Source: Candidatus Polarisedimenticolia bacterium (GTDB lineage: Bacteria > Acidobacteriota > Polarisedimenticolia > JACPZX01 > DASXTC01). From it: a stretch of 64,000 nt of DNA. The notes under the pieces were generated by a model. It worked only from the letters and a program-made list of their open reading frames with translations, had not been told where the DNA came from and did not search any database. Position 1 is the stretch's first letter. Every line of letters starts with the position of its first letter. The translations under genes and the position numbers were made by a program. Where the stretch lies: the NCBI GenBank assembly GCA_035281445.1, contig DATEEA010000030.1, forward strand, positions 2,332 through 66,331, in the 5' to 3' direction. Shown in pieces: positions 1 through 18,835 of the stretch.

Positions 1-2024
1 AGGCTCGTTGTCGTCGCCGCGGCTTCAAGCCCTGCGTCATCGTCTGCGTCCATTGCAGCGATATCATCGGCAGAGCGAAGGAGCGCCGCGATCTCCTCCA
101 GGTGTCCTTCCTTCTGCGTAATGACAGCATCGAGGGGGCCGTAGTCGAGTGTCAGCGTAACGATTTGTCCCAAACTCAAGCCCGCTGCCTGGAGCGTGGT
201 CGCGTGCTCGGTTTCCAGCTCCGTAAGGCTCGCCACCTCGCGGGCAATGGCCTGCCGGAGTTGCCGTAGCTGCTCTACGGTGGTGCTGGTTTCGACCTGC
301 TCGATTTCACGCTGCGCGATCTGCTCGGACAGCTCGGCGATCTTTCGCGTGAGATCTTCGACCTGCGTGGTTTCCGCAGACGGCCCGGCCGTCTCCGCTT
401 CGGGATTCGGCTTTTCCTCCGGGCAGGTCTTGCCGTGCGCCTCGATATCCTCTTTCTTCAGCCTGAGCTTCTCTTCGAGTTCCTTGCGGTAGTCCTCGGT
501 GAGTTTCTTCTCGATGGCGACGACCTTCGCATTGGCCTGGTGAAGCTCCTGCTTCTTCTCGGCGATGTCCTTCTCGGCCTGCTGGGTCCGATACTTGATT
601 AGGTCGTCGAGATCAGACTTTCCGTGCTGGTCCTGCGGCTTAACATATCGGAAGATCACTTCGTTGAGTGTCGCCCGGAACTCGTCGTCCGCGATATTCG
701 CGCAAATCCGCTCCAGGTACTTTTGCGGCAGGTATTCGACCTTCTCGGGCAGATGCGTCGCGGTCTGCTCGTCAAGCGTTTTCTTATCAGGCTCGCCTTG
801 ATGCCAGTTCAGTGTAGCCTCGAAATGTTTCGCACATCCGGCCTTGAGGAATTTCTCCTTATTCAGAAACGAGAACAGCTCTTCGGGCCTTCCGCCCGCA
901 AGGCCCTTGGATATCTGGTTGTGGCTGTTGCCGAGCAGTCCGATTACATCCGTGACCGCGCTTTTCCCGCTGCCCTTGTTGCCGATGACCGCGACAAGCT
1001 CTTTGCCGAGGGCTATCCTCTCGTCGCAGAACCAGGTGCCGTGCTGTTCCTTGCGGTATCCGGCAATGCAGTCGAGTTGCAGTGATGCGATGTAGCGCGT
1101 CCCGTTCTGCCTGACGCGGCGCTCGGCCTCCGGCTCGGCTCCGATATGAACGCGGTTGGCCGGCTCGAAGACGATCTGCTTCAGACCTTCGTAGGTGAGA
1201 TCGGCCTTGATCCAGGTCGGCTCCAGCACGACGCCGTCCGCAGGAGTCGTGAAAACTTGCCCGAGTTTCGCATCGAGATCGGCAAGGGAGTGAGCATCGC
1301 AGCCAGAAAGCACGGGCTTGGGTTCCGTGTACTCTGACTTATCTTGGGCCCGCGAGCGGCTGAGGAACCACTCGACATTCTCGGCATTGCCGAAGAATGC
1401 GTCGCTGAACTTATCCAGCTCATCCGATAGCTCAGCCTTCCTCTTGACGCCCGGCTTCGCGCGAATGCCGTCATTGTTCGCCGCGGTGACAATCAGGACG
1501 TGGTCAAGGAGGTCGGCATCCCGTCCGTAGGTCTCGGTGAGAGCCTTCCGGATATACTCTCGAGTCGTCGTAGCCGATTCGAAATCGGCAGTCCGCGTGA
1601 GTTCGCTGGCCTTGACATCACGGTCCAAACGATCGGTTCTAGTGAGATTGAGAGCGCTGAGAAAGAACTTGATGCGGCTATCGCAATCGGGCTGAAAGGG
1701 GTTGAAGAGTAGGTGAACGTTGACCTCCTCTTCCGCCTTGTTAACGACGTAGTTGGTCCGCAACTCGACGTTGGGAAAGAACACCTTTGGGGAATCTCGA
1801 TACCGCTTCCGGTATTCGGCAACGGCAGTGAAGTAGCATTCGGCGGAGAAATAATCCGTGATGCCGAACGCCTGCACATCAGACTCATGCAGCCTTCGGC
1901 AATACGCATCCCACAATTCGGCGCCGTCCGGCGCGCGGAACTGGTTGTTGAGTTTCGTTCCAGGCGCGTGGAGGTGGAGATCCCACTTTCTCCACTCTGA
2001 GCCCCTAGGTGAGTTCGCAATCAT
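1..2024 (-). CDS. Large PHP-domain + P-loop (SMC/RecF/OLD-like) ATPase with coiled coil. The C-terminus runs off the window start. Ppl-like candidate defence protein.
   Basis: Own translation of the minus strand, in a frame absent from the track because there is no in-window stop. It starts MIANSPRGSEWRKWDLHLHAPGT, giving the PHP HxH motif. Further on is SGCDAHS, a PHP Asp-His motif. About 345 aa in comes LVAVIGNKGSGKSAVTD, a Walker A. That is followed by more than 250 aa of Glu/Lys/Leu-rich heptad-like sequence (coiled coil). The ATG is at ~2024 and the frame closes upstream at a TAG. GC is lower than the window background. Confidence 0.7.
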   Translation of the reverse strand, partial: MIANSPRGSEWRKWDLHLHAPGTKLNNQFRAPDGAELWDAYCRRLHESDVQAFGITDYFSAECYFTAVAEYRKRYRDSPKVFFPNVELRTNYVVNKAEEEVNVHLLFNPFQPDCDSRIKFFLSALNLTRTDRLDRDVKASELTRTADFESATTTREYIRKALTETYGRDADLLDHVLIVTAANNDGIRAKPGVKRKAELSDELDKFSDAFFGNAENVEWFLSRSRAQDKSEYTEPKPVLSGCDAHSLADLDAKLGQVFTTPADGVVLEPTWIKADLTYEGLKQIVFEPANRVHIGAEPEAERRVRQNGTRYIASLQLDCIAGYRKEQHGTWFCDERIALGKELVAVIGNKGSGKSAVTDVIGLLGNSHNQISKGLAGGRPEELFSFLNKEKFLKAGCAKHFEATLNWHQGEPDKKTLDEQTATHLPEKVEYLPQKYLERICANIADDEFRATLNEVIFRYVKPQDQHGKSDLDDLIKYRTQQAEKDIAEKKQELHQANAKVVAIEKKLTEDYRKELEEKLRLKKEDIEAHGKTCPEEKPNPEAETAGPSAETTQVEDLTRKIAELSEQIAQREIEQVETSTTVEQLRQLRQAIAREVASLTELETEHATTLQAAGLSLGQIVTLTLDYGPLDAVITQKEGHLEEIAALLRSADDIAAMDADDDAGLEAAATTTS

Positions 2025-2325
2025 CGCATTTCGCTTCCAGGCTGGATCCCATGACGCGTATTCCACGATTCTCTGTATCCGCCCGATGACCGCGGATCTT
2101 GACGGCTCCCCTGCAGTGCCGCTTGGCGGGGAAACACCAGGTGTTTGACAGGGGCTCACATGGCCCGCCGCAGGATTCTACCATTGTTCCGGAGGCACCG
2201 GACCGCTGAGACGTTGTGTCGCCGCCGTGCAGTGGGGCCTGAGGACTCTTCTCCGGCGTAAGATTCTCATGGAGGAGGGAAAACTGTGGTGGGTCGCGGA
2301 GTAGTAGCCGGAAACCTTTCCGAAG

Positions 2326-2353
2326 GAAAAAGCCAAGGCATGATGCCTTGGCT
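2326..2353 (-). terminator. Rho-independent terminator between the 123-aa hypothetical gene and the PHP-ATPase gene.
   Basis: The inverted repeat agccaaggcat-g-atgccttggct is perfect (11 bp stem). On the minus-strand transcript it is followed by a UUUUU run, the complement of aaaaa at 2326-2330. Confidence 0.6.
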
Positions 2354-2367
2354 CTTGATGTGGCCGC

Positions 2368-2739
2368 TCAGGAAGTGCGAAACGCTTCCTGGAAGCCGCG
2401 GTTGATTCGGGACAGGAGGTCGAAGGCGCTGCGCACGCTGCGGGTCCGGTGGGTCGCGTAGTGCGTCGCTGTGTTGTAGGCGTCGAAGATGTTCGAGAGC
2501 CCCTTCCTGGTCAGATGGTCAGTGAGTGTCCGGGATGCGAGGCTCGGAAGCCCTTCCAGCACGGGCTGAAGCGGGTGCCAGGTGCAGGACCGCTGCGTCC
2601 ATGTCCGATAGAGTTCGAGGATCGCATCGAAGCCCGTGAGGTACGACGCGAGCTGCTCGGCGACGCTCTCGATCGGGATCTCGCCGGCGTGGACGGACAT
2701 GAACCCGCCGGCGAACACGCCGCCTCCACCCACCGCCAA
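2368..2739 (-). CDS. Hypothetical protein (123 aa) immediately upstream of the PHP-ATPase gene.
   Basis: A track ORF of 123 aa with an alternative internal start MSVHAGE. It contains no Arg-rich shadow-frame signature and I recognise no family. The terminator hairpin sits directly downstream. Confidence 0.45.
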   Translation of the reverse strand: MAVGGGGVFAGGFMSVHAGEIPIESVAEQLASYLTGFDAILELYRTWTQRSCTWHPLQPVLEGLPSLASRTLTDHLTRKGLSNIFDAYNTATHYATHRTRSVRSAFDLLSRINRGFQEAFRTS

Positions 2740-2999
2740 GTTCGTGCAGACGAACCGGAACGCTCCGATGTGGACCGTCTAGTCCAATCGCCCAAATCGT
2801 CTCAAAAAGGCCAGCGGTTATCAAGAGTATCCCACCTCACATCCCTATCCCGAGACATGGCCTAGCCAGTCAACTTTGCCGTCGAGTCGTCGAGCTCCTC
2901 CGCTAGAATCCGAAGTTGGTCGTAAACCTCTCTCAGATGCGCGATTTCGGTTGCATTCATAGTCACATAAACCTCTAGCGCCCTTACCGGAAAATACAT

Positions 3000-3360
3000 C
3001 AACAAGAGCTACAGATGATGAGATGGCAAGGCTTGCGGCCGACGTTGATCGGCTGATCCATAAGCATCACCCCGATCAACAAGGACCTCATCGACGAGCG
3101 GCTGGTCCAACTCAAGAACCGCCGCAGGGCGCTTGAGGCACGCCGCGATGAACTGACCTGGCACGCTGAGCGCAAGGTGGACCTCGAGGCCGCCACGCGC
3201 GCCGCGTTGGCCTACTTGACGCGGTTCCGGGGGGGCCTAGGCCACGGGACCTTCCTTGAGCAAGAGGAGCTGATCGCCGCCTTCGTCGATGGAATCCATC
3301 CTCCACCCGGTCAACAAGACTGGGACGCTGAAGCTCCGCTTGCGGCGTCTTTATGGTAAC
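3000..3360 (+). pseudogene. Frameshifted remnant ORF, possibly a recombinase or transposase C-terminal fragment.
   Basis: Two adjacent frames read ...DEMARLAADVDRLIHK and then ...INKDLIDERLVQLKNRRRALEARRDELTWHAERKVDLEAATRAALAYLTRFRGGLGHGTFLEQEELIAAFVDGIHPPPGQQDWDAEAPLAASLW*. The second, ~95-aa, frame has no start codon. It has coiled-coil character reminiscent of recombinase C-terminal regions and lies in an AT-richer block. Confidence 0.3.
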
Positions 3361-3450
3361 CGGAGCATGCGCCGGCTGGGGATCCCGTACGACGAGGGCA
3401 AGTGCCCCGCATGAAAGCCGCGCAAGGTGCGGTCTTGGTCGGGCGGACCC

Positions 3451-3479
3451 TTGACACTCCCCGTGGGCTGCGGTATAAA
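3451..3479 (+). promoter_or_regulatory. Sigma70-like promoter upstream of hup.
   Basis: TTGACA at 3451-3456 and TATAAA at 3474-3479 are separated by a 17-nt spacer. A GGGGAGG ribosome-binding site precedes the ATG at 3555. Confidence 0.5.
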
Positions 3480-3554
3480 GCGGCGCCTTGTTTCGCTGCA
3501 CCGTCCGGAACGTTTCCGTTTGGCATCGGCACAGTCCTCGGGGAGGTAAGCTGG

Positions 3555-3827
3555 ATGAACAAAGCGGACCTGATCGTCAAGTTGTCGAAGGACGCCGGCA
3601 TCACGAAGGAGAAGGCGAACCTGGCCATCGACTCGCTGGTCGACGGCGTCACCAAGGGGCTCAAGAAGGGCACGCGCGTGACCCTGGTCGGCTTCGGCAC
3701 CTTCTACAGCGCCAAGCGCAAGGCGCGCGTCGGCCGCAACCCGCAGACCGGAGAGACCATCCAGATCAAGGCCAAGCGGGTCGCCCGCTTCAAGCCGGGC
3801 AAGGAGCTGGAGTCGTCCATCCGCTAG
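3555..3827 (+). CDS. hup: HU/IHF-family nucleoid-associated DNA-binding protein.
   Basis: MNKADLIVKLSKDAGITKEKANLAIDSLVDGVTKGLKKGTRVTLVGFGTFYSAKRKARVGRNPQTGETIQIKAKRVARFKPGKELESSI is a canonical HU sequence and length. The internal ATG at 3555 with a ribosome-binding site is preferred over the track start at 3402. Confidence 0.9.
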   Translation: MNKADLIVKLSKDAGITKEKANLAIDSLVDGVTKGLKKGTRVTLVGFGTFYSAKRKARVGRNPQTGETIQIKAKRVARFKPGKELESSIR

Positions 3828-3848
3828 GCTCGAGCTGCCCCGCTCCGA

Positions 3849-3878
3849 CCAGGGTGGTGTCGGAGGATGCCACCCTGG
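3849..3878 (+). terminator. Stem-loop downstream of hup.
   Basis: ccagggtgg-(12 nt)-ccaccctgg forms a perfect 9-bp stem. There is no clear U-tract. Confidence 0.35.
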
Positions 3879-4061
3879 CCGAGCCCCCCGACGGGCCGGA
3901 ATCCGCCGCCGGTGCTGCACAGTCAGAGCAACCGCTCCGTGCCCTCGCCGGGATACGGCTTGACGCTGGCCCCCCCTCGCGGTATCTGTAGGCAACCTCT
4001 ATTTATAGCCGTCTGGGTGCGTTCGGGCGCTGTCTCACCTTCCCTTTGGAGGCTCCCCAAA

Positions 4062-4718
4062 ATGACGATCGCAAGTCGCTGGATCATCGGCTTGCGCGGC
4101 CCGGGGCTGGCCCTGGCCCTGCTGGCGCTGGCGGTTCCTGCCCATGCCACCACGTTGAAAAGGATGGACTTGTCCGAGCTGGTGCGCGGTGCGGACCGGG
4201 TGGTCCATGCCCGGGCGGCCGGCACCAGGGTCTACTGGGACCCCAGCGGCACCCAGATCTACACCGACACCCGCTTCGAGGTGGTGGAGGAGGCCAAGGG
4301 GCGCGGGCCCCGCACCCTCACCCTCACCACCCTGGGCGGGAGGATGGGAGAGGTGGTCATGTCGGTGGAGGGGACGCCGGCCTTCGAGCAGGGGAGCGAG
4401 GCGGTGCTGTTCACCGCCGCGGCGCCGGACGGAAGGCGCCATCTGGTGGGCTTTTCGCAGGGGGTGATGCGCGTCATCGAGGATTCGCGGACCGGGGACC
4501 GGTTCGCGGTCAGCGAGACCCCGGCGGGGGTCACGGTCATGGAGCGGACCGGGACCGGGCTGGCTCCCGTCAGGCCGCGCCGGCAGAGGGCGAGCCTGCC
4601 GCAGCTTCTCGATGAGATCCGCCGCATCGCGCAGGGCGAGCCCGCCGGCCCCAGGCTGCTGTCCCGGCCGCAGAAGGCCGCCGGGGCCGCGCCCGCTCCG
4701 CAGGAGGGGAGGCCATGA
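4062..4718 (+). CDS. Secreted hypothetical protein (~218 aa) co-transcribed with the downstream metalloprotease.
   Basis: There is an internal ATG with a GGAGG ribosome-binding site. The signal peptide is MTIASRWIIGLRGPGLALALLALAVPAHA. The stop overlaps the start of the next gene (ATGA). Confidence 0.55.
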   Translation: MTIASRWIIGLRGPGLALALLALAVPAHATTLKRMDLSELVRGADRVVHARAAGTRVYWDPSGTQIYTDTRFEVVEEAKGRGPRTLTLTTLGGRMGEVVMSVEGTPAFEQGSEAVLFTAAAPDGRRHLVGFSQGVMRVIEDSRTGDRFAVSETPAGVTVMERTGTGLAPVRPRRQRASLPQLLDEIRRIAQGEPAGPRLLSRPQKAAGAAPAPQEGRP

Positions 4719-7330
4719 GACTCCATCATCTGGCGGCGCTGGCCGGCCTGGCCGGCGCCCTGCTCCTGGCGGGCGGGCAGCCCCAGGCCACGGGCAACCT
4801 GGAGGTCATCACCCAAAGCGGCACCGCCATCGGCAACCGGGTGTGGCACGCCAACTCCATCCCTATCGTCTGGCAGTACAACGACCCCACCACCGTCGGC
4901 ACGTGCAGCTACAGCTCCACCAACGCCCCCGCGATGACGCTGCTGCCCGCCCTGCAGGCGGCCTACGACGCCTGGGAGGTGGACCCCGACTCGGCTCTGG
5001 ACTTCACCTACGGGGGGACCACCGCCACGCGCAACGTCGGAAACGACGGGGTCAACGTGGTGACCTTCTGCGACTCGGTCGTGCTGCAGTCCAACCAGGG
5101 GTTTCTCGCCAGCACCCCGTCCACGGCCCTCGCCTCCCAGATCACCGTGACGGCGGGGGGCGGCTGTCCCGCCGGGCAGGGGATCCTCGACGCCAACGGG
5201 CCGCAGCCTCCGGCCGGGTTCTGCTTCCCGGTGGGGACCTACCCGGCCGGCACGACCATCGACGCCGACATCCGGTTCAACACCTTCGGGACGTTCGAGC
5301 AGGCCAACTTCTCCACCAACAACACGATCGGCACCTCCGACGTGCAGGCGGTCATGACCCATGAAATCGGTCACTTCTTCGGCCTGTCGCACGATCCGAT
5401 CCCGCAGGCGGTCATGTTCCCGTTCGTGGACGACGAGCCGGCCAGCGACGGGATGGGGCAGAGGGTGCTCAAGCGGTCGGACCTGAGCACGGCGGGGCAC
5501 TTCTACCCCGCCGCCAGCTTCGGCGTCAACTTCGGCAGCATCACCGGGTTCATCTCGCTCGACGGGGTGGACGCCGACGGGGTCCACGTCGCGGCCATCG
5601 ACCCCTCCACCATGCTGGGGGTCTCCGGGCGCTTCGCCATCTCCCGGTTCGAGGACAGCCTGGCCCTGGGCCCGGACGGGCCCGACTTCGCGGCCAACGG
5701 CGCCGGATTCTACAGGATCGACGGGCTCCCCCCTGGCGACTACTACGTGTATGTCGAGTACTTCGACAACTCCGACTTCATCTCGGGGCGGCTGGTCAAC
5801 CGGTACAACACGACGGTGGGGAACTCCAACGTCTCCAACGGCAATTCGGGATCGACCGGCCAGGTCGGGAGCTGGCTGGGGTTCATACCGGCCCTGGCCG
5901 AGTTCCACAACGCCGGCGACTCGGGGCACGGCGGCAACGGCATCGATCCGGGGACGGCGCTGGACAACTCCGACGTGGCCACGCTGGTCCCGGTCACGGC
6001 GGGGACGGTGACCTCCAACGTCAACATCGCCATCAACATCGAGCCGGTCAACGGCCAGACGGCCGTCAACCGCCAGAACCCGACCACCCGCAACACGCTC
6101 CCCAACGATCTGCTCGGGACCAACGACATCATCACCGCCTTCCTGCTGGAGGAGGGAGACGACGACTGGTGGGCGATCCGCTTCCCGGCTTCCGCCCTGC
6201 CGCCGGTTCCCTTCAACGTGGCCGAGGGGCAGTGGATGAAGGCGGGGCTGAGCACCATGCCCATGGTCACCCGGCTGGCCTTCGCCGACCCCAACAGCCC
6301 CTCGAATCCGGCGCTCAACGACCCGGTGGTGGCCTCCGCCGGGCGGGTGCTGACCGGCGGCCCCGGCGGCACGCTGCCCGCGGGGGACTTCATCGACGTC
6401 CGGGACCAGTGGAACGTGACCGTGACGCAGGCCCAGGATGTCTGGATCCTCATCAACCAGCCGGAGTCCGACCCCAACATCACCTTCCTGACCGAGGGGT
6501 TCTTCGCCCTGGTGGCCCAGACCCAGGGGGGCGCCGCCCGCGTGAACAACACGCGCCTGACCATCAACGGTGGGGCGAGCTGGTCCACGTTCACCCAGGG
6601 GGATGTCTTCTACGACCTGATCCTGGAGGCCGACCCGCCGGTCATGATCACCGGCGCCTCTCCCGCCTCGATGAACGCCTTGCAGACGGCAGACGTGGAC
6701 ATCAACGGCCTGGGCTTCCAGATGGGGGCGGCGGTGGACTTCGGCCCGTTCGTGACGGTCAACAACGTCACTTTCATGAGCCCCCAGCAGCTCCGGGCCA
6801 ACATCACCGTGGCCGCGGTGCCGGGCACGGCCCCGGTGGCGGTGAACGTGAAGGTCACCAACCCGGACGTGGTCTTCCCCAACGTGGCCAGGGTCTTCAG
6901 CCTCGTCCCGGTCCAGGACACCGACCTCGACGGCACCCCGGACACCGAGGACTGCGCGCCGGGCGACTCTTCCATCCAGCACCCGGCGACGGAGGTGGCC
7001 AACCTGCTGGTGGCCGACCTGGGCGGCTCGACACAGCTCACCTGGGACAGCCAGGACATGGCCAGCGGCACGGCGACCGTGTATGACGTCGTGACCGGCA
7101 TCGCCGGCGACCTCAGGACCACACCGGGCTACGGGATGGCGCAGTGCGGGGCGGACAACCACGCCGACTCGCCGTTTGTGGACATGAACCCGGATCCGCC
7201 CCTGGACGGCATCCGCTACTGGCTGGTGAGGGCGTTCAACGGCTGCACGGCGGGCTCGGGGACGTACGGCGACAGCAACGTGGCGCCCGACCCCAGAGAC
7301 GCGCTCGACGCGGGAGTCCCCTGCCCTTAG
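4715..7330 (+). CDS. Secreted zinc metalloprotease of the metzincin/matrixin type (871 aa) with a large beta-rich C-terminal extension.
   Basis: There is an N-terminal signal peptide. HEIGHFFGLSHD matches the HExxHxxGxxH zinc-binding motif and AVMFP is a Met-turn. The C-terminus has a TSP3-like DTDLDGTPDTEDC motif and a Cys-rich tail. Confidence 0.85.
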   Translation: MRLHHLAALAGLAGALLLAGGQPQATGNLEVITQSGTAIGNRVWHANSIPIVWQYNDPTTVGTCSYSSTNAPAMTLLPALQAAYDAWEVDPDSALDFTYGGTTATRNVGNDGVNVVTFCDSVVLQSNQGFLASTPSTALASQITVTAGGGCPAGQGILDANGPQPPAGFCFPVGTYPAGTTIDADIRFNTFGTFEQANFSTNNTIGTSDVQAVMTHEIGHFFGLSHDPIPQAVMFPFVDDEPASDGMGQRVLKRSDLSTAGHFYPAASFGVNFGSITGFISLDGVDADGVHVAAIDPSTMLGVSGRFAISRFEDSLALGPDGPDFAANGAGFYRIDGLPPGDYYVYVEYFDNSDFISGRLVNRYNTTVGNSNVSNGNSGSTGQVGSWLGFIPALAEFHNAGDSGHGGNGIDPGTALDNSDVATLVPVTAGTVTSNVNIAINIEPVNGQTAVNRQNPTTRNTLPNDLLGTNDIITAFLLEEGDDDWWAIRFPASALPPVPFNVAEGQWMKAGLSTMPMVTRLAFADPNSPSNPALNDPVVASAGRVLTGGPGGTLPAGDFIDVRDQWNVTVTQAQDVWILINQPESDPNITFLTEGFFALVAQTQGGAARVNNTRLTINGGASWSTFTQGDVFYDLILEADPPVMITGASPASMNALQTADVDINGLGFQMGAAVDFGPFVTVNNVTFMSPQQLRANITVAAVPGTAPVAVNVKVTNPDVVFPNVARVFSLVPVQDTDLDGTPDTEDCAPGDSSIQHPATEVANLLVADLGGSTQLTWDSQDMASGTATVYDVVTGIAGDLRTTPGYGMAQCGADNHADSPFVDMNPDPPLDGIRYWLVRAFNGCTAGSGTYGDSNVAPDPRDALDAGVPCP

Positions 7331-7340
7331 GCAAGGGGCG

Positions 7341-7853
7341 CTACTCCAGGACGATCAGGGTCTCGCCGGTCTCCACGGTCCGGCCCGGGGAGACGAGCAC
7401 CTGCCTGACCACCGCGTCGCGGGGGGCGGCGATCTCGTTTTCCATCTTCATCGCCTCCACCACCACCAGTCCCTGGCGGGCGGCGACGCGGGCTCCGGGC
7501 TCGACCAGCACGCGCAGCACCCTGCCGGGCATGACGGCGGCGACACGCAGGCGCCCGCCCGCCTCGGCCGCGCGGCGCGAGGGCCCCGCCCCCGGCTCCT
7601 CGGGGACCACCTCGAAGCTCATCCCGCCCACCCGCACGCGCACCGCCCCGCGGGCGTGCTGGACGATCGCCTCATGCGACATCCCCTCGGTGAGGATGGA
7701 GAAGACCCGGTCCTGGGGCTCGGTCACGCTCAGGGCGTAGCCTCGGCCGTCCACCACCGCCCTGACCCCTCCCCGGCCGTCGTGCTCGAGCTCCACCTGG
7801 TGCAGGCTCTCCCCCACGCGGGCGCTGAAGCGGGTGGTGCTGCGCGCGGTCAT
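7341..7853 (-). CDS. Biotin carboxyl carrier / BT-hook + biotinyl domain protein (C-terminal portion of an acyl-CoA carboxylase alpha subunit).
   Basis: The tail of track frame 7341..8672 is read from MTARSTTRF. It carries the biotinyl-lysine motif EAMKMENEI. The start ATG overlaps the stop of the upstream biotin carboxylase (ATGA). Confidence 0.7.
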   Translation of the reverse strand: MTARSTTRFSARVGESLHQVELEHDGRGGVRAVVDGRGYALSVTEPQDRVFSILTEGMSHEAIVQHARGAVRVRVGGMSFEVVPEEPGAGPSRRAAEAGGRLRVAAVMPGRVLRVLVEPGARVAARQGLVVVEAMKMENEIAAPRDAVVRQVLVSPGRTVETGETLIVLE

Positions 7854-9352
7854 CGCCCGGGGCCTTCCATCTGCCGGCGCCGGCCGGCCGCCCGCCAGGC
7901 GCTCGGCCCGCCGCGGTGATCGCCCCCCGCCGCCGGCGTCCTCCCCTGGGCCAGCGCCGCGGCGATGAGGGCGAGGTCCTTCAGGAGCTCCGCGCGCCCG
8001 CCGGCCAGCGGCGGGCGGCCGTTCATCTCCTCCACGAAGCGGGTGTGCAGCTCCCCGCGCACGAAGCGCTCGTCGCGCAGCGCCCTCTGGTGGAAGGAGA
8101 GCGTCGTGGGGACCCCGACCACCATGTACTCGTCGAGCGCCCTGAGCATCCTGGCGATGGCCTCGGCGCGGGTCTCCCCCCAGGCGACCAGCTTGGAGAT
8201 CAGGGGGTCGTAGTGGATCGGCAGGGCGTACCCTTCGTACACCCCGCTGTCGTCGCGGATCCCGGGGCCTCCGGGGACCCTCAGCCGCTCGATGCGTCCG
8301 GGAGCGGGGAGGAACCCGCGGTCGGGGTCCTCGGCGTAGATGCGGCACTCGATGGCCGACCCGCGCAGGGCGACGTCGTCCTGGCTCAGGCCGCTGGCCT
8401 CGCCGGCGGCCACCCGGAGCTGGGCCTTGACCAGGTCCACGCCCGTGACCATCTCGGTGACCGGGTGCTCGACTTGCAGCCGCGTGTTCATCTCCATGAA
8501 GTAGAAGCGTCCTTCGGCATCCACGAGGAACTCCACCGTCCCGGCCCCGCGGTAGCCCACGGCGTCGGCGGCGCGCACCGCCGCCTCTCCTAGCTGCTGC
8601 CTCCGGGCGGCGTCCACCATGGGAGAGGGGCTCTCCTCGATGAGCTTCTGGTGGCGGCGCTGGATGGAGCACTCGCGCTCTCCCAGGTGGATGGCCCCGC
8701 GCGCGTCGGCCAGCACCTGCACCTCGATGTGGCGGCCGCGCTCGATGTAGCGCTCCACGTACACGGCGGGGTTGCCGAACGCCGCCCCTGCCTCGGAGGC
8801 GGCCTGGGCGAGGGCCGACTCGGCCTCCCCCTCGGACCGGACCACGCGCATCCCGCGGCCGCCCCCTCCGGCCGCCGCCTTGATCAGCACCGGGTAGCCG
8901 ATGGCCGCCGCCTGGCTTCGCAGCTCGGCCGCCGAGGCCACCGGGCCCTCGGTCCCCGGGACCAGAGGGACCCCCGCCTCCTTCATGAGCTTGCGCGCCC
9001 TGACCTTGTCCCCCATGGCGGCGATGGCCTCCGCCGGCGGGCCGATGAAGACCAGGCCGGCCGCGGCGCAGGCCCGGGCGAAGGCGGCGTTCTCGGAAAG
9101 GAAGCCGTAGCCGGGGTGCACGGCCTCGGCCCCCGAGCGGCCGGCGGCGGCCACGATGGCCTCGATGGAGAGATAGGACCTGGACGCCTCGGCCGGCCCG
9201 ATGAGATAGGCCTCGTCGGCGTAGCGCACGTGCAGGGCGTCGCGGTCGGCCTCGGAGAAGACGGCCACGCTGCGCACGCCGGCCTCCCGGCAGGCCCGTA
9301 TCACCCGGACGGCGATCTCCCCCCGGTTGGCGATGAGGATCTTGTGGAACAT
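7850..9352 (-). CDS. accC: Biotin carboxylase (acetyl/propionyl-CoA carboxylase BC domain) with a ~45-aa C-terminal extension.
   Basis: MFHKILIANRGEIAVRVIRACREAG... is a canonical ATP-grasp biotin carboxylase. Confidence 0.9.
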   Translation of the reverse strand: MFHKILIANRGEIAVRVIRACREAGVRSVAVFSEADRDALHVRYADEAYLIGPAEASRSYLSIEAIVAAAGRSGAEAVHPGYGFLSENAAFARACAAAGLVFIGPPAEAIAAMGDKVRARKLMKEAGVPLVPGTEGPVASAAELRSQAAAIGYPVLIKAAAGGGGRGMRVVRSEGEAESALAQAASEAGAAFGNPAVYVERYIERGRHIEVQVLADARGAIHLGERECSIQRRHQKLIEESPSPMVDAARRQQLGEAAVRAADAVGYRGAGTVEFLVDAEGRFYFMEMNTRLQVEHPVTEMVTGVDLVKAQLRVAAGEASGLSQDDVALRGSAIECRIYAEDPDRGFLPAPGRIERLRVPGGPGIRDDSGVYEGYALPIHYDPLISKLVAWGETRAEAIARMLRALDEYMVVGVPTTLSFHQRALRDERFVRGELHTRFVEEMNGRPPLAGGRAELLKDLALIAAALAQGRTPAAGGDHRGGPSAWRAAGRRRQMEGPGR

Positions 9353-9372
9353 GGGGGGAGATGATACCTGAT

Positions 9373-10059
9373 TCAGCCGATGAACTTGTACCCGACCCTG
9401 TGCACGGTCACGATGAACTGCGGCTCGTCGGCCTTCCCCTCGATCTTCTTGCGCAGCTTGGCCACGTGCATGTCCACGGTGCGGGTGAAGGGGATCTGCT
9501 CGTACCCCCAGACGGCGTACAGGAGCTGCTCGCGGGCCACCACCTGCCCGCGGTGCTCGATGAGGTACTTGAGGAGCTGCAGCTCTCTCTGGGAGAGATC
9601 CACCGGGCGGCCCCCCTTGCGCGCCTCGTGCTTCTTGAAGTTCACGCTGACGTCGCCGAAGCTGTACGCCTCGAGGGCGGCCGCCCCCGCACCGCCGTTG
9701 GCCCTCCGCATCACCGCCTCGGCCCGGGCCATCAGCTCCATGAAGCTGAAGGGCTTGGTGACGTAGTCGTCGGCGCCCATCTTGAGCCCCAGGACCTTAT
9801 CGATCTCCTGGCCGCGGGCGGTCAGCATGATGATGGGGGTGGCCACACCGTCGGCCCGCAGCTTCCTGCAGACATCCAGGCCGCTCATCCGCGGGAGCAT
9901 CACGTCCAGGATGATCAGGTCCGGGGGCTCGGCCAGCGCCTGCCTCAGCCCGGCCTCCCCGTCGCGGGCCAGCGCCGGGGCGAACCCTTCGTACTCGAAG
10001 CCGTCTCGCAGCGCGATGGCCATGGACTCGTCGTCCTCCACGATCAGCACCCTAGGCAC
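9373..10059 (-). CDS. OmpR-family two-component response regulator.
   Basis: [26 protein letters not shown]...ILDVMLP is the receiver domain. The C-terminal winged helix contains VHRVGYKF. Confidence 0.9.
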
Positions 10060-11653
10060 CTGCTGTCTCCTCCACCGGCAGCCGTATGGCGAACCGGCTC
10101 CCCCTCCCCGGCTCGCTGTCCACGGTGACCGCCCCTTTGTGCGCCTGCACGATGTGGTTGACGATGGAGAGCCCCAGCCCGCTCCCCTTCACGTCGTGCA
10201 CCAGGCCCGTGCTCACCCTGTGGAACCGCTCGAAGATCTTGGTCTGCTCGTCGCGGGAGATCCCGATCCCCTGGTCCTTGACCGAGACCATGACGTAGCC
10301 GTTGTCCTGTCCCACCGCCACGTCGATGGCCCGGGCGGAGCCGGAGTACTTGACGGCGTTGTCCAGCAGGTTGCTGACCGCCTGGCCGATGGCGTCGGCG
10401 TCGAGCCACACCTTCGGCAGCGGGCGCTCAGGCTGGTCGAACCGTATCTCGAAGCCGCTGTGGCGCAGGCGCACCTCGAAGGTCTTCAGCGTCTCGCAGA
10501 CCACGTCGGTCAGATCGGCGCTCTCGAACCGGTAGGTCTTGCGCCCCGACTCGATCTTGGCGAAGTCCAGGATGTTGTTCACCAGCCCCGTCAGGCGGCG
10601 GCTCTCGGTCTCGATGTACTCGCCGTACTCGCTCACCTTGGCGGGGTCGGTGACCCGGCCCAGGCGCAGGAACTCTCCGAACACACGGATGCTGGCCAGC
10701 GGCGTTCGCAGCTCGTGCGACACGTTGGAGACGAAGTCGTTCTTCATCTGGGAGAGCTTCATCTCCCTCGACGCCGTCCTCAGGGCCAGCGCGACCCCTC
10801 CCAGCAGCACGACGGCGATGGCGGCCGACAGCCCCATGTTCAGCACGAAGTTGGCCTGGGCCCAGTCCTTCGGGTTCATGTCCTTGCTGGACAGCCCGAT
10901 GCGGTAGTCCCTGAAGACGAAGGCCATGGCGCGCTCCGCCTCGAACTTCTCCTCCAGCTTGTCCCGCTTGGCCCCCCGCACCACGACCCTCAGGTTCTTC
11001 TGGTCGGCCTCGGAGAAGAAGTACGGCATGGACTTGTCGATGACCTTGGGCAGGAGCCTGTCGCGGAAGAACCGGTGGTCGAGGATGAGCCCGGCCAGTC
11101 CCACCACGCGCGACTCGGCGTCCAGGACGGGGTGGATGATCAGCCGGTTCTCCGGGTCGCGCTCGTCCACCGACAGCGCCTCGGTCTCCACGACGTCGCG
11201 CTTCTCGCTGAGCATCCACCAGGGGGCGGCGGCCACGTAGATGGCGCGCTGCTCGGCGGCGCTGGCGGGGGGCTCCATCGCCGGGATGGAGGGCTCGTAC
11301 ACCAGGGCCTTCCCGTGGTCCTCTCGCACGAAGCTCAGCACGAAGAAGCGCTTCACCCCCAGGGGGCCCTTCTTCATGAACTTGTCGAAGTGGTAGGCCG
11401 CCTTGTCCAGGCGGTTCTCGATGAACATCCACGCGGGGAGGTTCAGGGCGGCCGTGGCCAGCTCCTTGTAGTGGTACTCGGACTTGGTGGCCACCGCCTC
11501 GAGGTAGTTCTTCAGGGTCGCCTCGTGGGCGATGGCGGACTTGGTCTGCAGCTCCACCAGCCAGCGGTACTGCAGGACGAGCATCACCGTCAGCGGCACG
11601 AGCACCGCCAGAAACCCCGCCCACAGCACGTGGCGCTTCAGGAAGGCCTTCAT
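10052..11653 (-). CDS. Sensor histidine kinase.
   Basis: An N-terminal transmembrane segment is followed by a periplasmic region and a second transmembrane segment. The H-box is [16 protein letters not shown]. The HATPase region contains LDNAVKYS and GSGLGLSIV. Confidence 0.9.
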
Positions 11654-11839
11654 AGGCCGGGAATATACGCCCCCCGGAGTCTTCCGTTGGCTTCCGGCAG
11701 CGCCTCTTTACAGTCCGTTGACAACGGAGACACCTTTTTACCCTCATTTTAGGCCGTTTACTCCCCTGCCCCGTAAGATCCGCAGCGAAACGAGGGTTCG
11801 TCGCCGGCCGGACGGGCCCCCCTTGACGGGAGGTGCTGG

Positions 11840-12316
11840 ATGAAGCGTCGGGTCGCGTTGGCAGTTGCGGCCGTGCTGGCGATCGCGCCGGCGGCGATGG
11901 CGGGTGGAGACCACTACAAGTGCACCAAGGCCACCCAGGCCTGCCTGGACATGATGGCCCACGACATGAAGAACAGCGGGTGGGTGGGCATCGAGCTGGA
12001 CAAGTCCGAGGACGGCAAGATGCTGGTGAAGAAGGTCGTCTCCGGCAGCCCGGCGGAGTCGGCCGGCTTCAAGGAAGGGGACGTCCTGGTCGCCCTGCAA
12101 GGGCTCAAGTTCGCCGACGAGTCGAACAAGGAGGCCCTCAAGGCGGCCAAGAAGGCGATGGCCCCGGGCAAGGAGATCACCTACACGGTCCTGCGCGCCG
12201 GCGCGGAGAAGAAGCTGACCGCAACCCTGGCGCCGGTTCCTCAGGAAGTCCTGGCCCAGTGGATCGGCAACCATATGCTGGCGCACGCCGACAACACGGC
12301 GATCGCCCGCAACTGA
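11840..12316 (+). CDS. Secreted PDZ-domain protein.
   Basis: The signal peptide is MKRRVALAVAAVLAIAPAAMA. The PDZ core is VKKVVSGSPAESAGFKEGDVLVAL. Confidence 0.7.
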   Translation: MKRRVALAVAAVLAIAPAAMAGGDHYKCTKATQACLDMMAHDMKNSGWVGIELDKSEDGKMLVKKVVSGSPAESAGFKEGDVLVALQGLKFADESNKEALKAAKKAMAPGKEITYTVLRAGAEKKLTATLAPVPQEVLAQWIGNHMLAHADNTAIARN

Positions 12317-12324
12317 CGAAAACT

Positions 12325-12353
12325 GGAGGCGCCCTCGCCGGGAGGGCGCCTCC
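12325..12353 (+). terminator. Strong stem-loop after the PDZ gene.
   Basis: ggaggcgccctc-gccgg-gagggcgcctcc forms a perfect 12-bp stem with a 5-nt loop. No U-tract follows. Confidence 0.45.
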
Positions 12354-12375
12354 CCCAGCCAAGGACTCGAAACCC

Positions 12376-13689
12376 ATGACCCTCGCGACGGCATCCCTGG
12401 CGGCGGCCCTGGCCTTGGCCGCGGCCGAAGCTCCGCCCGCCCGGGCCTCCCTGGAGGAGAGCCTCCGCCGGGCCGAGGGGGCCATGCGCGAGGGGGCCTT
12501 TGCCGAGGCGGCCGACGCCTGGATGGAGGCGGCCCGCATGGTCCCGAACCACCCCGGGGTGCTGATCAGGGCAGGGGAGGCGCTGGCCCTGTCGGGCCGT
12601 CCTGCCGAGGGGCTGGAGTACCTCCTGCGGGCCGGCAGGCAGGGAGGAACCGGACATCTGGAGCGGATCGAGACGTCGTTCGCTTCCGCCGGCAGGGCCG
12701 ACCTCACCGCCGCCCTCGACCTGCTGCGGGCCAACGCCGGGGCGCTGGCGACCGGGACCGTGGCCTTCTCCCTGGCGGAGAAGGACCTCATACCGGAAAG
12801 CGTCGCCTACGACCCCCGGGAGAAGGTCTTCTACGTGGGGAGCCTGCACAAGAGGAAGATCGTGCGGGTGGACGCCTCCGGGGACGCCCGCGACTTCGTG
12901 CCCCAGGCGGGCTCGGGGCTGTGGAGCGTGCTTGGGATAAAGGTGGACCAGGAGCGCCGCGAGATCTGGGCCAACGCCTGCAACCTGGTCGACCCGGACC
13001 CGCCGATGGTGCCGGACGAGGCGGCGACCAGGGGCCGGACGGCTGTGTTCCGCTTCGATCTCGCCACCGGAAAGGTGGTGGCCCGCTACGAGAGCGGCAG
13101 CAAGGAAAGCCCCCTCTGCTTCAACGACCTGACCCCCGCCACCGAGGGGGCCTGGTACCTCTCCTCGGGGGCCGACGGCATCTTCCGGGTCGACCCGGGC
13201 AAGGGGACGCTGGAGCGCTTCGCCGCCTACGACGGGATGGTCAACGGCATCGCCGCCTCGGACGACGGGCGGCTGCTCTTTCTGGCCGATCACCGGCGCG
13301 GGGTGCAGGTGATGGATGTGGCCAGCCGGCAGGTGCGGGCGCTGCGTCTCCCCCCGGACGCCTCGCTGGCCGGGGTGGACGGCCTCTACGTGCGCGGCCG
13401 CACGGTGGTGGCGGTGCAGAACGCCCTGACCCGCGGCCTGGCCCGGGTCGTCTCGGCCGAGATGGACCCCGGGCTTGAGTCGGTCCTGTGCCTGAGGGTG
13501 CTCGACCGCAACCGCCCCGAGTTCGACGTCCCGACCACGGGGGTCCTGGTGGGCGGCGACCTCTACTACGTCGCCTCCAGCCAGCTCGATTCGTTCGACC
13601 ACGGCACTATCTGGCCGCTGGATCGCCTCAGGCAGAGCGTGGTGATCAGGACCCCTTACGCGCCGCGGTGCGGCGAGCAGGGAGCGTGA
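12376..13689 (+). CDS. Secreted TPR-like + beta-propeller (SMP-30/NHL-like) hypothetical protein.
   Basis: An internal ATG precedes MTLATASLAAALALAAA, a signal peptide. The track's longer N-terminus, 11833..13689, was rejected because it overlaps the PDZ gene. Confidence 0.55.
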   Translation: MTLATASLAAALALAAAEAPPARASLEESLRRAEGAMREGAFAEAADAWMEAARMVPNHPGVLIRAGEALALSGRPAEGLEYLLRAGRQGGTGHLERIETSFASAGRADLTAALDLLRANAGALATGTVAFSLAEKDLIPESVAYDPREKVFYVGSLHKRKIVRVDASGDARDFVPQAGSGLWSVLGIKVDQERREIWANACNLVDPDPPMVPDEAATRGRTAVFRFDLATGKVVARYESGSKESPLCFNDLTPATEGAWYLSSGADGIFRVDPGKGTLERFAAYDGMVNGIAASDDGRLLFLADHRRGVQVMDVASRQVRALRLPPDASLAGVDGLYVRGRTVVAVQNALTRGLARVVSAEMDPGLESVLCLRVLDRNRPEFDVPTTGVLVGGDLYYVASSQLDSFDHGTIWPLDRLRQSVVIRTPYAPRCGEQGA

Positions 13690-13691
13690 CC

Positions 13692-14012
13692 ATGCCCCGA
13701 GAGTCGGCGCCTTCCAGGCTCAAGATCGGGGCCTATCTGGCGGCCGGAGCGCTGGCCACCGGGGTGATCGGCCTGGGGAGCGCACCCTCCTCGCAGGACG
13801 GGCCGCGTGGCGTCGTGGTCCCGGCCGCGATGGCGGCGGCCGGCATCCTGGCCCCGGCGCAGGCCGCCGCGGCCGAGGAGGCGCCCCGCGCCCTCGTCCG
13901 CACCCGCGCCCCGGAAGCCGCGCAGCCGGGCCAGGAAGACGGCGTGCAGGGCGTGCAGGAGGCCGTGGCCCCGCGGCGGTGCGAGACACGGGTGAAGTCG
14001 AAGCGAGCTTGA
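13692..14012 (+). CDS. Small Ala-rich hypothetical protein.
   Basis: The ATG lies 3 nt after the previous stop. The sequence is low complexity and the call is weak. Confidence 0.25.
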   Translation: MPRESAPSRLKIGAYLAAGALATGVIGLGSAPSSQDGPRGVVVPAAMAAAGILAPAQAAAAEEAPRALVRTRAPEAAQPGQEDGVQGVQEAVAPRRCETRVKSKRA

Positions 14013-15676: not shown

Positions 15677-16320
15677 CAGGCCTTGAGCTTCTTCCAGTCG
15701 GCCAGGAACTTCTCGCTGCCGATGTCCGTGAGGGGGTGCCTGAAGAGGGCGTCGAACACCTTGTGGGGCATCGTGGCCACGTCCGATCCGGCCAGGGCGG
15801 CCTCCAGCACGTGCACGGGATGCCGCACGCTGGCCGTCAGGATCTGCGTGGAGAAGCCGTAGTTGTCGAAGATGGTGCGGATGTCGCGGATGAGGTCCAT
15901 CCCCACGTGCGAGATGTCGTCGAGCCGCCCTATGAAGGGGCTGACGTAGGTGGCCCCGGCCTTGGCCGCGATGAGCGCCTGGGTGGCCGAGAAGCAGAGC
16001 GTGACGTTGGTCTTCACTCCCTGCGGGGCCAGCTTCCGCACGGCCATGATCCCTTCCTTGAACAGGGGGACCTTGACCACGATGTTCGGATGGATCTCGC
16101 GCAGCTCCAACCCCTGGCGCACCATCCCCTCGGTGTCGGGGACGGTCACCTCGGCGCTCACCGGACCGTCCACGATGGCGCAGATCTCCAGCAGCAGCTC
16201 CCGGAAGTTGCGCCCTTCCTTGGCCACCAGACTGGGGTTGGTGGTGATGCCGTCCAGGACGCCCGTGGCCGCGGCCTGCCTGATCTCCTCGATGCTTCCG
16301 GTGTCGAGGAAGAACTTCAT
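15676..16320 (-). CDS. tal: Short-form transaldolase / fructose-6-phosphate aldolase.
   Basis: [36 protein letters not shown]... is a 214-aa TalC/Fsa-type sequence. Confidence 0.9.
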
Positions 16321-18835
16321 GGCGTCTCCTCCTCTTTGGATTCCTTCTCCAGTTGGGCGAGCTCCTCGGCGGTCGGCTCGGGCGGAGCGATCTCCGGGCC
16401 CGCGTCGTCGCCCCGCTCCACGACCTTGGCGGCGGAGGCGATCTTGTCCCCCGCTTCCAGCACCATGAGGCGCACGCCCTGCGTGTTGCGGCCCACCACG
16501 CTGATCCGCTTGACCCGCATGCGGGCGACCATGCCCGACGTCGTGCTGAGCATGATCTGGTCTTCCTCGCCCACGGCCTTCACGCCGACGACCTTGCCGT
16601 TGCGCGCGGTGGTCTTGATGTCAATGATACCCATTCCGCCGCGGCTCTGCTTCCGGTAGAGCCCCACCTCGGTGCGCTTGCCGTACCCGTTCTCCGTGGC
16701 GGTGAGGATGTGCGTGGCCCCGGCCAGGGTGTCCATCTCCACCACGTCGTCGTTGGTTCGCAGCTTGATGCCGCGCACCCCGCGGGCGGCGCGGCCCATG
16801 GGGCGGACGTCGTCCTCGGGGAAGCGGATGATCTTGCCGTCGCGGGTGGCCAGGATGATGTCCTGGCTTCCGTCGGTGAGCCGGGCCGCCAGGAGGTCGT
16901 CCCCGGCGTCGATGGACAGGGCGATGATCCCATGGCTCCTGACGTTGGCGAAGGCCTTCAGCTCGGTCTTCTTCACCACCCCTTGCCGGGTGGCCATGGT
17001 GACGAACTTGCCGTCCTCGAAGTCCTTCACCGGCAGGACCGCCCGGAACTCCTCCCCCTCGTCCAGCTTGACGAAGTTCACCAGCGCCTTGCCGCGGGCG
17101 GCCGCGCCCACCTGCGGGATCTCGTGCACCTTGAGCCAGTGCAGCCGTCCCTTGTTGGTGAAGATCAGGATGTAGGAGTGCGTCGAGGCCACGAACAGGT
17201 GCTCCACGAAGTCCTCGTCCCGGGTGGTCATCCCGATGCGCCCCTTGCCGCCGCGCCCCTGCGTCCGGTAGATGTCCAGTGGAGTCCGCTTGATGTATCC
17301 GGAATGCGACACCGTGACCACCATGTCCTCCTCGGCGATCATGTCCTCCACCGAGATTTCCTCCACCTGCCCGACGATCTCGGTGCGCCGGTCGTCGCCG
17401 TAGGTGTCGCGGACGGCGCGCAGCTCGCCGGAGATGATGGAGAGCACCAGCTTCTCGCTGCCCAGGATCTCCTTGAGCCTGGCGATCAGGGCCAGCACCT
17501 CGGTCAGCTCGTCGAGAATCTTCTGGCGCTCGAGGCCGGTGAGGCGCTGGAGCCGCATGTCCAGGATGGCCTGGGCCTGGACGTCGGTCAGCTTGAGCTT
17601 GAAGCGAAGCTGCTCCTTGGCCACCTGGGGGCTGGCGGCGGCGCGGATGGTGGCGATCACCTCGTCGAGGTGGTCCAGGGCGATCTTGAGCCCTTCCAGG
17701 ATGTGGGCCCGATCCTGCGCCTTGCGCAGATCGAACTGGATCCGCCGGTAGACGACCTCCTTGCGGTGGGACAGGAAGGCGTCGAGCATCTCCCGCAGCG
17801 AGAGGACCCTGGGCTGGTTGTTCACGATGGCCAGCAGGATGACCCCGAACGTGTCCTGCATCTGCGTGAACTTGAAGAGGTAGTTCAGGATCGGCTGGGC
17901 CGGCTCGTCGCGCTTCAGGTCGAGCACGATGCGCATCCCTTCGCGGTCCGACTCGTCGCGGATGTCGGCGATGCCGTCCACCCGCTTGTCACGGACGAGC
18001 TGGGCGATGTGCTCGATGAGCCGCGCCTTGTTCACCTGATAGGGGATCTCGGTGATCACGATCCGCTCGAAGCCCTTGCGCTGAGCCTGCTCCACGTGGG
18101 CCCTGGCCCGCATGACGACCGTCCCGCGGCCCGTGGCGTAGGCCGACCGGATGCCGTCCAGGCCGTAGATGAGCCCGGCGGTGGGGAAGTCCGGCCCTTG
18201 GATGTGCTGCATCAGGTCCTGCAGCGTGCAGCGCGGGTTCTCGATGATGAGCAGCAGCCCCTCCACCAGCTCCCGCAGGTTGTGCGGCGGGATCTTGGTG
18301 GCCATCCCCACGGCGATGCCGTCGGCGCCGTTGGCCAGCAGGTTCGGGATGGCGGCGGGGAGCACCAGCGGCTCCTCGAGCGTGCCGTCGTAGTTGGGGA
18401 CGAAGTCCACCGTCTCCTTCTCCAGATCGCGCAGCATCTCCGAGGTCAGCCTGGCCATCCGGACCTCGGTGTAGCGCATGGCCGCGGGGGGATCGCCGTC
18501 CACCGACCCGAAGTTCCCCTGCCCGTCGATGAGCGGGTAGCGCAGGGAGAACTCCTGGGCCATGCGCACGATGGCGTCGTAGACCGGCGCCTCACCGTGA
18601 GGGTGGTACTTGCCGATGACGTCGCCGGCGATGCGGGCGGACTTCTTGTAGGGCTTGGTGTGGTCGTTGCCCAGGTCGTGCATGGCGTAGAGCACGCGGC
18701 GGTGGACGGGCTTGAGCCCGTCGCGCACGTCGGGCAGCGCGCGGCCGATGATGACCGACATGGCGTAGTCGAGATACGACTTGCTCATCTCGTCTTCGAT
18801 GTCGACCGGAACGATGCGATCCAGCTTCTCTTCCA

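Follow-up and report, generated by a model that had tools for sequence, protein, structure and literature searches.

The window analyzed here, a stretch of 64,000 nucleotides (nt) from a Candidatus Polarisedimenticolia genome (contig DATEEA010000030.1 of assembly GCA_035281445.1, positions 2,332 to 66,331; a class within the Acidobacteriota), carries at its left edge the 5' two-thirds (674 of ~1044 codons) of a gene on the minus strand (1..2024) that runs past that edge and almost certainly belongs to the TrlF family. The encoded protein joins a PHP-type nuclease domain to an ATP-binding cassette (ABC) ATPase, and, taken overall, it is probably an ATP-gated nuclease that defends against phages or mobile elements. 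On the minus strand, 1-2024 forms a single stop-free frame of 674 codons from the ATG at 2024 and is intact at exact coordinates, as the original prediction, made from the sequence of this region, had presupposed. The open reading frame (ORF) is a real gene, as a database protein (P0001, annotated 'AAA family ATPase [Candidatus Polarisedimenticolia bacterium]' on an 83-kb contig) is 100% identical to the window product, and homologues are numerous, with >3,900 word-indexed and with 7,769 cluster representatives matching at E ≤ 1e-3 (1,713 at E ≤ 1e-30). P0001 also provides the C-terminus that is missing from the window, and the true length of the product is ~1044 amino acids (aa).

The ATG at 2022..2024 (minus strand) was assigned as the correct start codon on the basis of three observations. 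The N-termini of homologues read MT(V/A)NSPRGSEW, position 1 of the NCBIfam TrlF model (NF045780) aligns with residue 7 of the window protein, and DNA homology with related genes begins 15 to 32 nt upstream of this ATG (blastn). The public NCBI record of P0001 starts instead at an internal GTG (V53), 52 codons late (window 1869-2024, minus strand), and thus is without the first 52 residues, the catalytic HxH included; cloning from that record would yield a dead enzyme. Upstream of the ATG lies an untranslated leader and presumed trlF promoter region (2025..2322, minus strand), in which conservation among relatives ends after the first 15 to 32 nt and in which no consensus sigma-70 site was found. 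A small ORF overlapping the trlF start (2005-2184) is Cys-rich, had no Pfam match, and was judged spurious.

The N-terminal part of the protein (aa 8-305; 1110..2003, minus strand) comprises a PHP-type metal-dependent phosphoesterase/nuclease domain, as had been proposed from its HxH and DxH motifs, both of which are present. Because Pfam PHP gave no match, the fold was established structurally. An AlphaFold2 model of aa 1-330, built from a 71-sequence alignment, reached a predicted local distance difference test score (pLDDT) of 91.4 and a predicted template-modeling score (pTM) of 0.88. A fold search with this model returned EndoQ, a DNA endonuclease (score, 13.7), followed by TM0559 (12.1), RNase AM (11.6), and the PHP domains of replicative polymerases (9.7 to 11.5; Pol III PHP among the matches). 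According to the model, the N-terminal part has the PHP fold, a distorted barrel resembling that of triosephosphate isomerase.

The motifs expected of such a domain are well conserved. In motif I (WDLHLHAPGT, aa 14-23; 1956..1985, minus strand), H17 and H19 are kept in 98% of 47 family members, Escherichia coli TrlF and Ppl among them. The central part of the domain holds conserved candidate ligands (E87, N102, and H104; 1713..1766, minus strand), of which E87 occurs in every aligned family member and H104 in 96% of them; Ppl has both. Likewise, in motif IV (SGCDAHS, aa 240-246; 1287..1307, minus strand), D243 never varies and H245 is kept in 98% of the family, and both are present in Ppl. Taken together, H17, H19, D57, E87, H104, D243, and H245 are 96 to 100% conserved in the family and are all found in the window protein; with N102 included, conservation ranges from 81 to 100%, and all eight positions are common to E. 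coli Ppl. From this conservation, and not from coordinates, we infer putative metal-ligand roles for these residues, of which fewer than the nine canonical ligands could be assigned. A conserved junction (W271-IKADLTYEGLKQIVFEP...P298; 1131..1214, minus strand), in which W271 and L281 are invariant, connects PHP and ATPase. Every family-conserved residue of the window-encoded part is retained.

Downstream of the junction, the N-terminal lobe of an ABC ATPase head (aa 312-470; 615..1091, minus strand) was delimited by the secondary structure of the AlphaFold2 model, together with weak Pfam matches to AAA_15 and SMC_N, so that of the Pfam profiles named in the original prediction these two matched weakly and PHP did not match. 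The predicted Walker A motif (GNKGSGKS, aa 348-355; 960..983, minus strand) is present, and all aligned family members keep its K354 and S355; it lies 102 residues past the DxH motif rather than ~80, as first estimated. The Q-loop glutamine (Q434; 723-725, minus strand) is 98% conserved. Beyond the window, the sequence of P0001 contains the expected C-terminal ATPase lobe, with the signature LSPGERGG, the Walker B motif within LVIDQPEDNLD (DQPE), the D-loop NLD, and the H-loop within VTHNPN. With GNKGSGKS and Q434 encoded in the window and the signature, Walker B, D-loop, and H-loop in P0001, the set of ABC motifs is complete.

Between the two lobes lies a helical, coiled-coil-type insert, the first ~200 residues of which are encoded in the window (aa 472-674; 3..611, minus strand), as indicated by AlphaFold2 helices (472-507, 510-532, 550-613, and 629-648), by composition (K+E+L+Q+A+R, 58% over aa 471-674 versus 43 to 45% upstream), and by Foldseek. 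The coiled-coil-like sequence in the window thus amounts to ~204 residues (aa 471-674) and not to the >250 residues claimed earlier, residues 356-470 being part of the ATPase N-lobe. A full-length AlphaFold2 model of an 86% identical relative (P0002; pLDDT, 88; pTM, 0.70) divides into PHP (1 to ~305), head N-lobe (312-470), helical insert (472-793; ~320 residues), and C-lobe (798-1036). Its best matches in the Protein Data Bank (PDB) were Rad50 (top), MukB, an Smc head with coiled coil, JetC, LmuB, and RecN, and its PHP part again matched RNase AM. By this model, which bears out the anticipated Rad50-like head with a helical insert, the ATPase is a Rad50/SMC-type ABC ATPase whose head lobes are split by the insert. 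The alternative OLD-like or Gabija GajA-type reading was ruled out by the lack of a TOPRIM domain, so that of the two kinds of ATPase first suggested only the SMC-like one holds: full-length relatives gave no TOPRIM match in Pfam, NCBIfam, or PADLOC, and GajA matches were marginal and restricted to the ATPase motifs. A phmmer search of PDB sequences found neither a Ppl nor a TrlF structure; it returned only Rad50/SMC/ABC motifs plus spurious DARPin matches to an Ala/Asp-rich tail. No Rad50 zinc-hook CxxC was found in aa 470-674, and the remaining insert was inspected in the P0001 sequence only. Between two long helices, the loop formed by aa 533-549 (nt ~378-428, minus strand; consensus KPxExxxP) has near-invariant P535 and P541, the only conserved feature of the insert loop, and is a candidate apex or dimerization element in place of the Rad50 zinc hook.

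The assignment to the TrlF family is based on NF045780 ('TrlF family AAA-like ATPase'), an equivalog model of 944 positions with a cutoff of 350 bits. The window fragment scored 325.6 bits over model positions 1-595, P0001 with its mis-started N-terminus scored 560.6 bits over positions 44-944, and P0002 scored 619.2 bits over positions 1-944. In addition, the TrlF genes annotated on plasmids by RefSeq and its Prokaryotic Genome Annotation Pipeline (PGAP) align end to end with the query. Of the three identities that had been left open, a Ppl orthologue, a TrlF-like variant, and a new fusion, the TrlF-like one is therefore the right one, as shown by full-length scores of 560 to 619 bits against the cutoff of 350. 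A new fusion was excluded, as the PHP-ATPase fusion is common to TrlF and Ppl. The second-best NCBIfam match was the Spaf_1101 model (NF045781; 118 to 124 bits against a cutoff of 475), mainly over the C-terminal head, with an additional weak match that starts in the DxH region and reaches Walker A.

The trlF gene is foreign to this genome and was horizontally acquired. Its GC content is 58%, compared to ~69% in the rest of the window, and its GC content at third codon positions (GC3) is 0.73, compared to 0.95 to 0.98 in five neighboring genes. The best matches in a scan of genome contigs were 84 to 87% identical genes from other phyla, and relatives that are 81 to 87% identical at the aa level come from metagenome-assembled genomes (MAGs) assigned to Planctomycetota, Verrucomicrobiota, Gammaproteobacteria, and Acidobacteriota, a range of phyla that binning errors could inflate. 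DNA similarity between the window and these relatives is confined to the gene plus the 15 to 32 nt upstream. Over window positions 1-3400, GC content per 200 nt is 52 to 65%, below the ~69% of the rest of the window, and this low GC together with the low GC3 marks the segment as one end of a horizontally acquired island, the far boundary of which lies outside the window. On the visible side, no tRNA, no Rfam family, no integrase, and no convincing att-like repeats were found as signs of an island boundary.

Upstream of the trlF leader, an inverted-repeat search identified a perfect-stem hairpin (I5; 14-nt arms and a 1-nt loop, followed by the T-run TTTTT; 2323..2356, minus strand), directly before which lies an ORF of 123 aa (…AFDLLSRINRGFQEAFRTS; 2368-2739, minus strand). 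The hairpin looks like an intrinsic terminator of the 123-aa ORF, which would make trlF a separate transcription unit. The ORF matched nothing in Pfam or PHROG, has no counterpart adjoining related trlF genes, and may be left over from the element that delivered trlF. As far as the window shows, trlF seems to stand alone as a cassette that is transcribed separately, its downstream flank lying beyond the window edge; upstream (2025-14000), neither trlG (AlbA_2 plus HATPase_c_4) nor trlR was found. The genes farther upstream of trlF encode an HU protein (Bac_DNA_binding; 3555-3827, plus strand), an 871-aa secreted M10-like metalloprotease with a matrixin-type HExxH motif (4715-7330, plus strand), a biotin carboxylase (7850-9352, minus strand), and a response regulator/histidine kinase pair (9373-11653, minus strand).

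The surroundings of related genes were assessed in 85 non-redundant loci, in which flanking ORFs within 6 kb were clustered all against all and representatives were confirmed by Pfam. A component of restriction-modification (RM) systems was found near trlF in 32 of the 85 loci, a raw count and not one set against a background frequency. By component, HsdR was near trlF in 12 loci, HsdM in 14, HsdS in 9, type III Mod in 9, Res in 5, and Dcm in 3. From general knowledge of RM density, the enrichment of such neighbors may be estimated at ~50-fold, which is an estimate and not a result. RM genes were frequently co-oriented with trlF and <500 bp away, and in 11 loci (L014, L015, L051, L066, L036, L042, L061, L064, L068, L075, and L078) trlF overlaps or abuts a co-oriented hsdR, hsdM, mod, or res gene, with same-strand gaps of -19 to +12 nt from which co-transcription within RM operons is deduced. 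Integrases were found in 11 of the 85 loci, and further neighbors included Fic, HipA, an Abi protein, SNF2, DUF2130, and transposases. On plasmids, 1,149 of 72,556 records gave matches at E ≤ 1e-5, mostly conjugative enterobacterial plasmids, with many of the matches limited to the C-terminal ATPase head and genes annotated as Ppl or Spaf_1101 included. Only 7 of 50,697 phage records had a match at the same threshold. In Microcystis phage Mwe-JY31 (PP438423.1, hit H31, a 22-kb record), positions 16105-18786 encode a TrlF-like protein annotated as hypothetical (33% identity, 55% query coverage). Separately, two of the loci (L012 and L013), from MAGs assigned to Anaerohalosphaeraceae (Planctomycetota) and Opitutales (Verrucomicrobiota), share 4.5 kb of 99.9% identical DNA that includes trlF and an upstream integrase-like ORF, reflecting either a very recent transfer or a binning artifact.

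In one rival reading, the protein is a housekeeping DNA repair enzyme, a fused analogue of SbcCD/Mre11-Rad50 acting on hairpins or breaks of host chromosomal DNA. Against this reading, the gene departs strongly from the codon usage of the host, near-identical copies are scattered over phyla and found on conjugative plasmids and beside integrases or transposases, relatives are embedded in RM operons, some copies are disrupted, and the window-encoded part of the helical insert has no zinc-hook CxxC. We consider a repair role unlikely.

The name of the family points to another possibility, namely, a growth-arrest module in which TrlF acts with TrlG and a small regulator to control host growth under stress and not in immunity. 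TrlF takes its name from the 'temperature restriction locus' (TRL) trlR-trlF-trlG of Photorhabdus laumondii, in which deletion of the operon relieves growth arrest at 36 °C (PMC7554251). A protein with the architecture of TrlG (SLFN_AlbA_2 plus HATPase_c_4) was indeed encoded within 6 kb of trlF in 9 of the 85 loci, and for 5 of these the distance was under 500 bp. Against this possibility, there is no TrlG-like gene upstream of trlF in the window (the downstream side being outside it) nor in the loci of five relatives that are 81 to 87% identical (L001, L004, L012, L013, and L028), and trlF itself was never mutated in the Photorhabdus screen (PMC7554251). Moreover, all nine loci with TrlG (L011, L018, L021, L030, L035, L040, L055, L061, and L078) also carry type I or type III RM genes, a sign of defence islands, which suggests that the pair known from the Photorhabdus locus is an RM-linked defence module. 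A TRL-type role in growth control is accordingly improbable for the window protein.

Ppl, a validated single-gene defence system that hampers T7 and that Bas63 gp130 counteracts (PMC11482910), has the same domain order, and the likeness pointed out in the original prediction is right at the level of architecture, since matches run in colinear blocks. By BLASTP, residues 8-436 of P0002 are colinear with residues 3-371 of Ppl (20% identity; E, 1e-6), and the C-terminal 122 residues are 32% identical to Ppl. A profile built from 70 TrlF sequences (custom hmmsearch) matched Ppl in three ordered blocks, of which the first covers HxH (10 bits, weak), the second runs in E. coli Ppl from DxH via the W-x-K...G-L...E-P junction to Walker A (36.7 bits), and the third covers the C-terminal head (62 bits). 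When the family profile was compared to E. coli Ppl by hhalign, only the C-terminal block was recovered. Because the blocks are colinear along the whole architecture, the PHP-ATPase fusion is shared and old, and by sequence comparison TrlF and Ppl are distant sister families.

That the window protein is a true Ppl orthologue with the same trigger, i.e., relief of nucleoside triphosphate (NTP) inhibition plus 3'-OH ends from phage homing endonucleases, is very unlikely, even though the matches at HxH, from DxH to Walker A, and at the C-terminal head are colinear and the candidate metal ligands are shared. The NCBIfam model Ppl_antiphage (NF042955; cutoff, 1000 bits) gave 75 to 76 bits over the last ~135 residues only, and the PADLOC Ppl hidden Markov model (HMM; PDLC02208) gave P0002 63 bits, compared to 1826 bits over the full length of the genuine E. 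coli plasmid Ppl (WP_015059139.1). These sub-threshold, C-terminal-only scores from both Ppl models led us to exclude an orthologue. Identity in the N-terminal half is ~20%, and Ppl is ~150 residues shorter. The annotation of plasmids in RefSeq likewise separates 'TrlF family AAA-like ATPase' from 'anti-phage protein Ppl', and the genes annotated as Ppl match the query at the C-terminus only.

Disrupted copies do occur among the relatives. In the closest relative in the set of species representatives (L028, 87% identical, from a Planctomycetota MAG), the gene is broken by an insertion of ~1.5 kb (9151-10696), the flanking matches of which overlap by 8 bp, so that it looks like an insertion sequence with a target-site duplication. 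In six other loci (L016, L025, L029, L048, L081, and L083), trlF is split or fragmented into two ORFs. That the window copy is itself an inactive passenger, a gene decaying on a defunct island as such interrupted relatives might suggest, is hardly credible given its 674 unbroken codons, the normal C-terminus to which P0001 reads, and the retention of all conserved residues.

We return to the reading of the window TrlF protein as an ATP-gated defence nuclease. The grounds for a defence role are that the sister Ppl is reported to act in this way, that the gene is of foreign origin, and that related genes have RM and mobile-element neighborhoods; on these grounds, the evidence leans toward the predicted function as a defence nuclease. 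In the mechanism that we propose, TrlF would dimerize via its ATPase heads, where ATP would be bound and hydrolyzed, and the nucleotide state would gate the PHP nuclease fused in cis, acting on nucleic-acid ends or abnormal structures. TrlF would then be a self-contained, one-chain analogue of Mre11-Rad50/SbcCD, the nuclease of which would protect the host, or the mobile element that carries it, from phages or competing mobile DNA. Possibly, it backs up an adjacent RM system in the manner of PrrC, which sits within type I RM loci (PMC3458546). For Ppl itself, a 2026 review describes the E. coli protein as a single-stranded DNA 3'-5' exonuclease that is inactive with NTPs on both the PHP and the NTPase domains and is switched on by nucleotide depletion plus 3'-OH ends (PMC12904381).

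Several points weigh against this reading. The Pfam PHP profile (PF02811) gave no match to the window protein at E ≤ 1 and matches only 2 of the 47 family members, as does PHP_C. The nearest PHP structures mix DNA enzymes (EndoQ and Pol III) with an RNA enzyme (RNase AM), and as to the substrate, sequence does not discriminate DNA from RNA or ends from internal sites. The neighbors visible in the window (HU, M10-type protease, and biotin carboxylase) are ordinary housekeeping chromosomal genes, and PADLOC 2.0 contains no TrlF system. No experiment shows nuclease activity or a role in defence for any TrlF protein. In Photorhabdus, the spontaneous temperature-tolerant mutants of the locus were all in trlG and none in trlF, so that the authors were unable to assign a role to TrlF (PMC7554251).

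A broader proposal, which we put forward tentatively, is that TrlF constitutes a defence family distinct from Ppl and not a variant of it, a single-chain PHP/Rad50-like 'mini-SbcCD' that recurs in type I and type III RM operons, often beside the Schlafen-like TrlG, and that would serve as a second line when restriction fails, like PrrC. If this were true, the 'temperature restriction' of Photorhabdus would stem from autoimmunity that heat triggers in a defence module and not from a life-cycle regulator. The single gene in the window matters little in this respect; it adds one horizontally acquired copy in an acidobacterial MAG to a large, already named, and poorly characterized family. The family as a whole merits attention, with an ancestral PHP-Rad50-like fusion in common with the validated Ppl, with placement in RM operons in over a third of the sampled loci, and with a distribution that extends from bacteria of the candidate phyla radiation to archaea and includes many clinical enterobacterial plasmids.

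Compared to known systems, the window protein is closest to the TrlF of Photorhabdus and NF045780, which it resembles in architecture (PHP plus ABC ATPase) and in its full-length HMM match, whereas the trlG and trlR partners of the Photorhabdus locus have no visible counterpart adjoining trlF in the window. It is ~150 aa longer than the TrlF of enterobacterial plasmids (893 aa), to which it is 27 to 36% identical. With Ppl it shares a PHP nuclease, the conserved junction, a Rad50-like ABC ATPase, and encoding by a single gene; in both, the conserved PHP positions read H/H/D/E/N/H/D/H, and Walker A, DQPE, and the H-loop are present. The two differ in the low identity of their N-terminal halves, in the length of the helical insert, and in overall length (Ppl, 891 aa). 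The Spaf_1101 family is partially alike, mainly in the C-terminal head, with a score far under its cutoff.

Among more distant systems, Mre11-Rad50/SbcCD likewise pairs a metal-dependent nuclease with an ABC ATPase in which a helical insert separates the lobes; the nuclease of the window protein has a PHP fold and is fused in cis, whereas that of Mre11 is calcineurin-like, and trlF is sporadic, mobile, and without a zinc hook in the window-encoded part, whereas SbcCD is core. RloC and PrrC also carry an ABC ATPase (Rad50-like in RloC) and a nuclease in one chain, and PrrC is found in type I RM loci like many trlF genes; their nuclease is C-terminal and aimed at tRNA anticodons, and they have no PHP domain. 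Finally, LmuB of Lamassu and JetC of Wadjet match structurally in the head and coiled coil, with weak LmuB HMM matches, but these systems rely on separate effectors (LmuA and JetD) and partner proteins, whereas TrlF bears its own nuclease.

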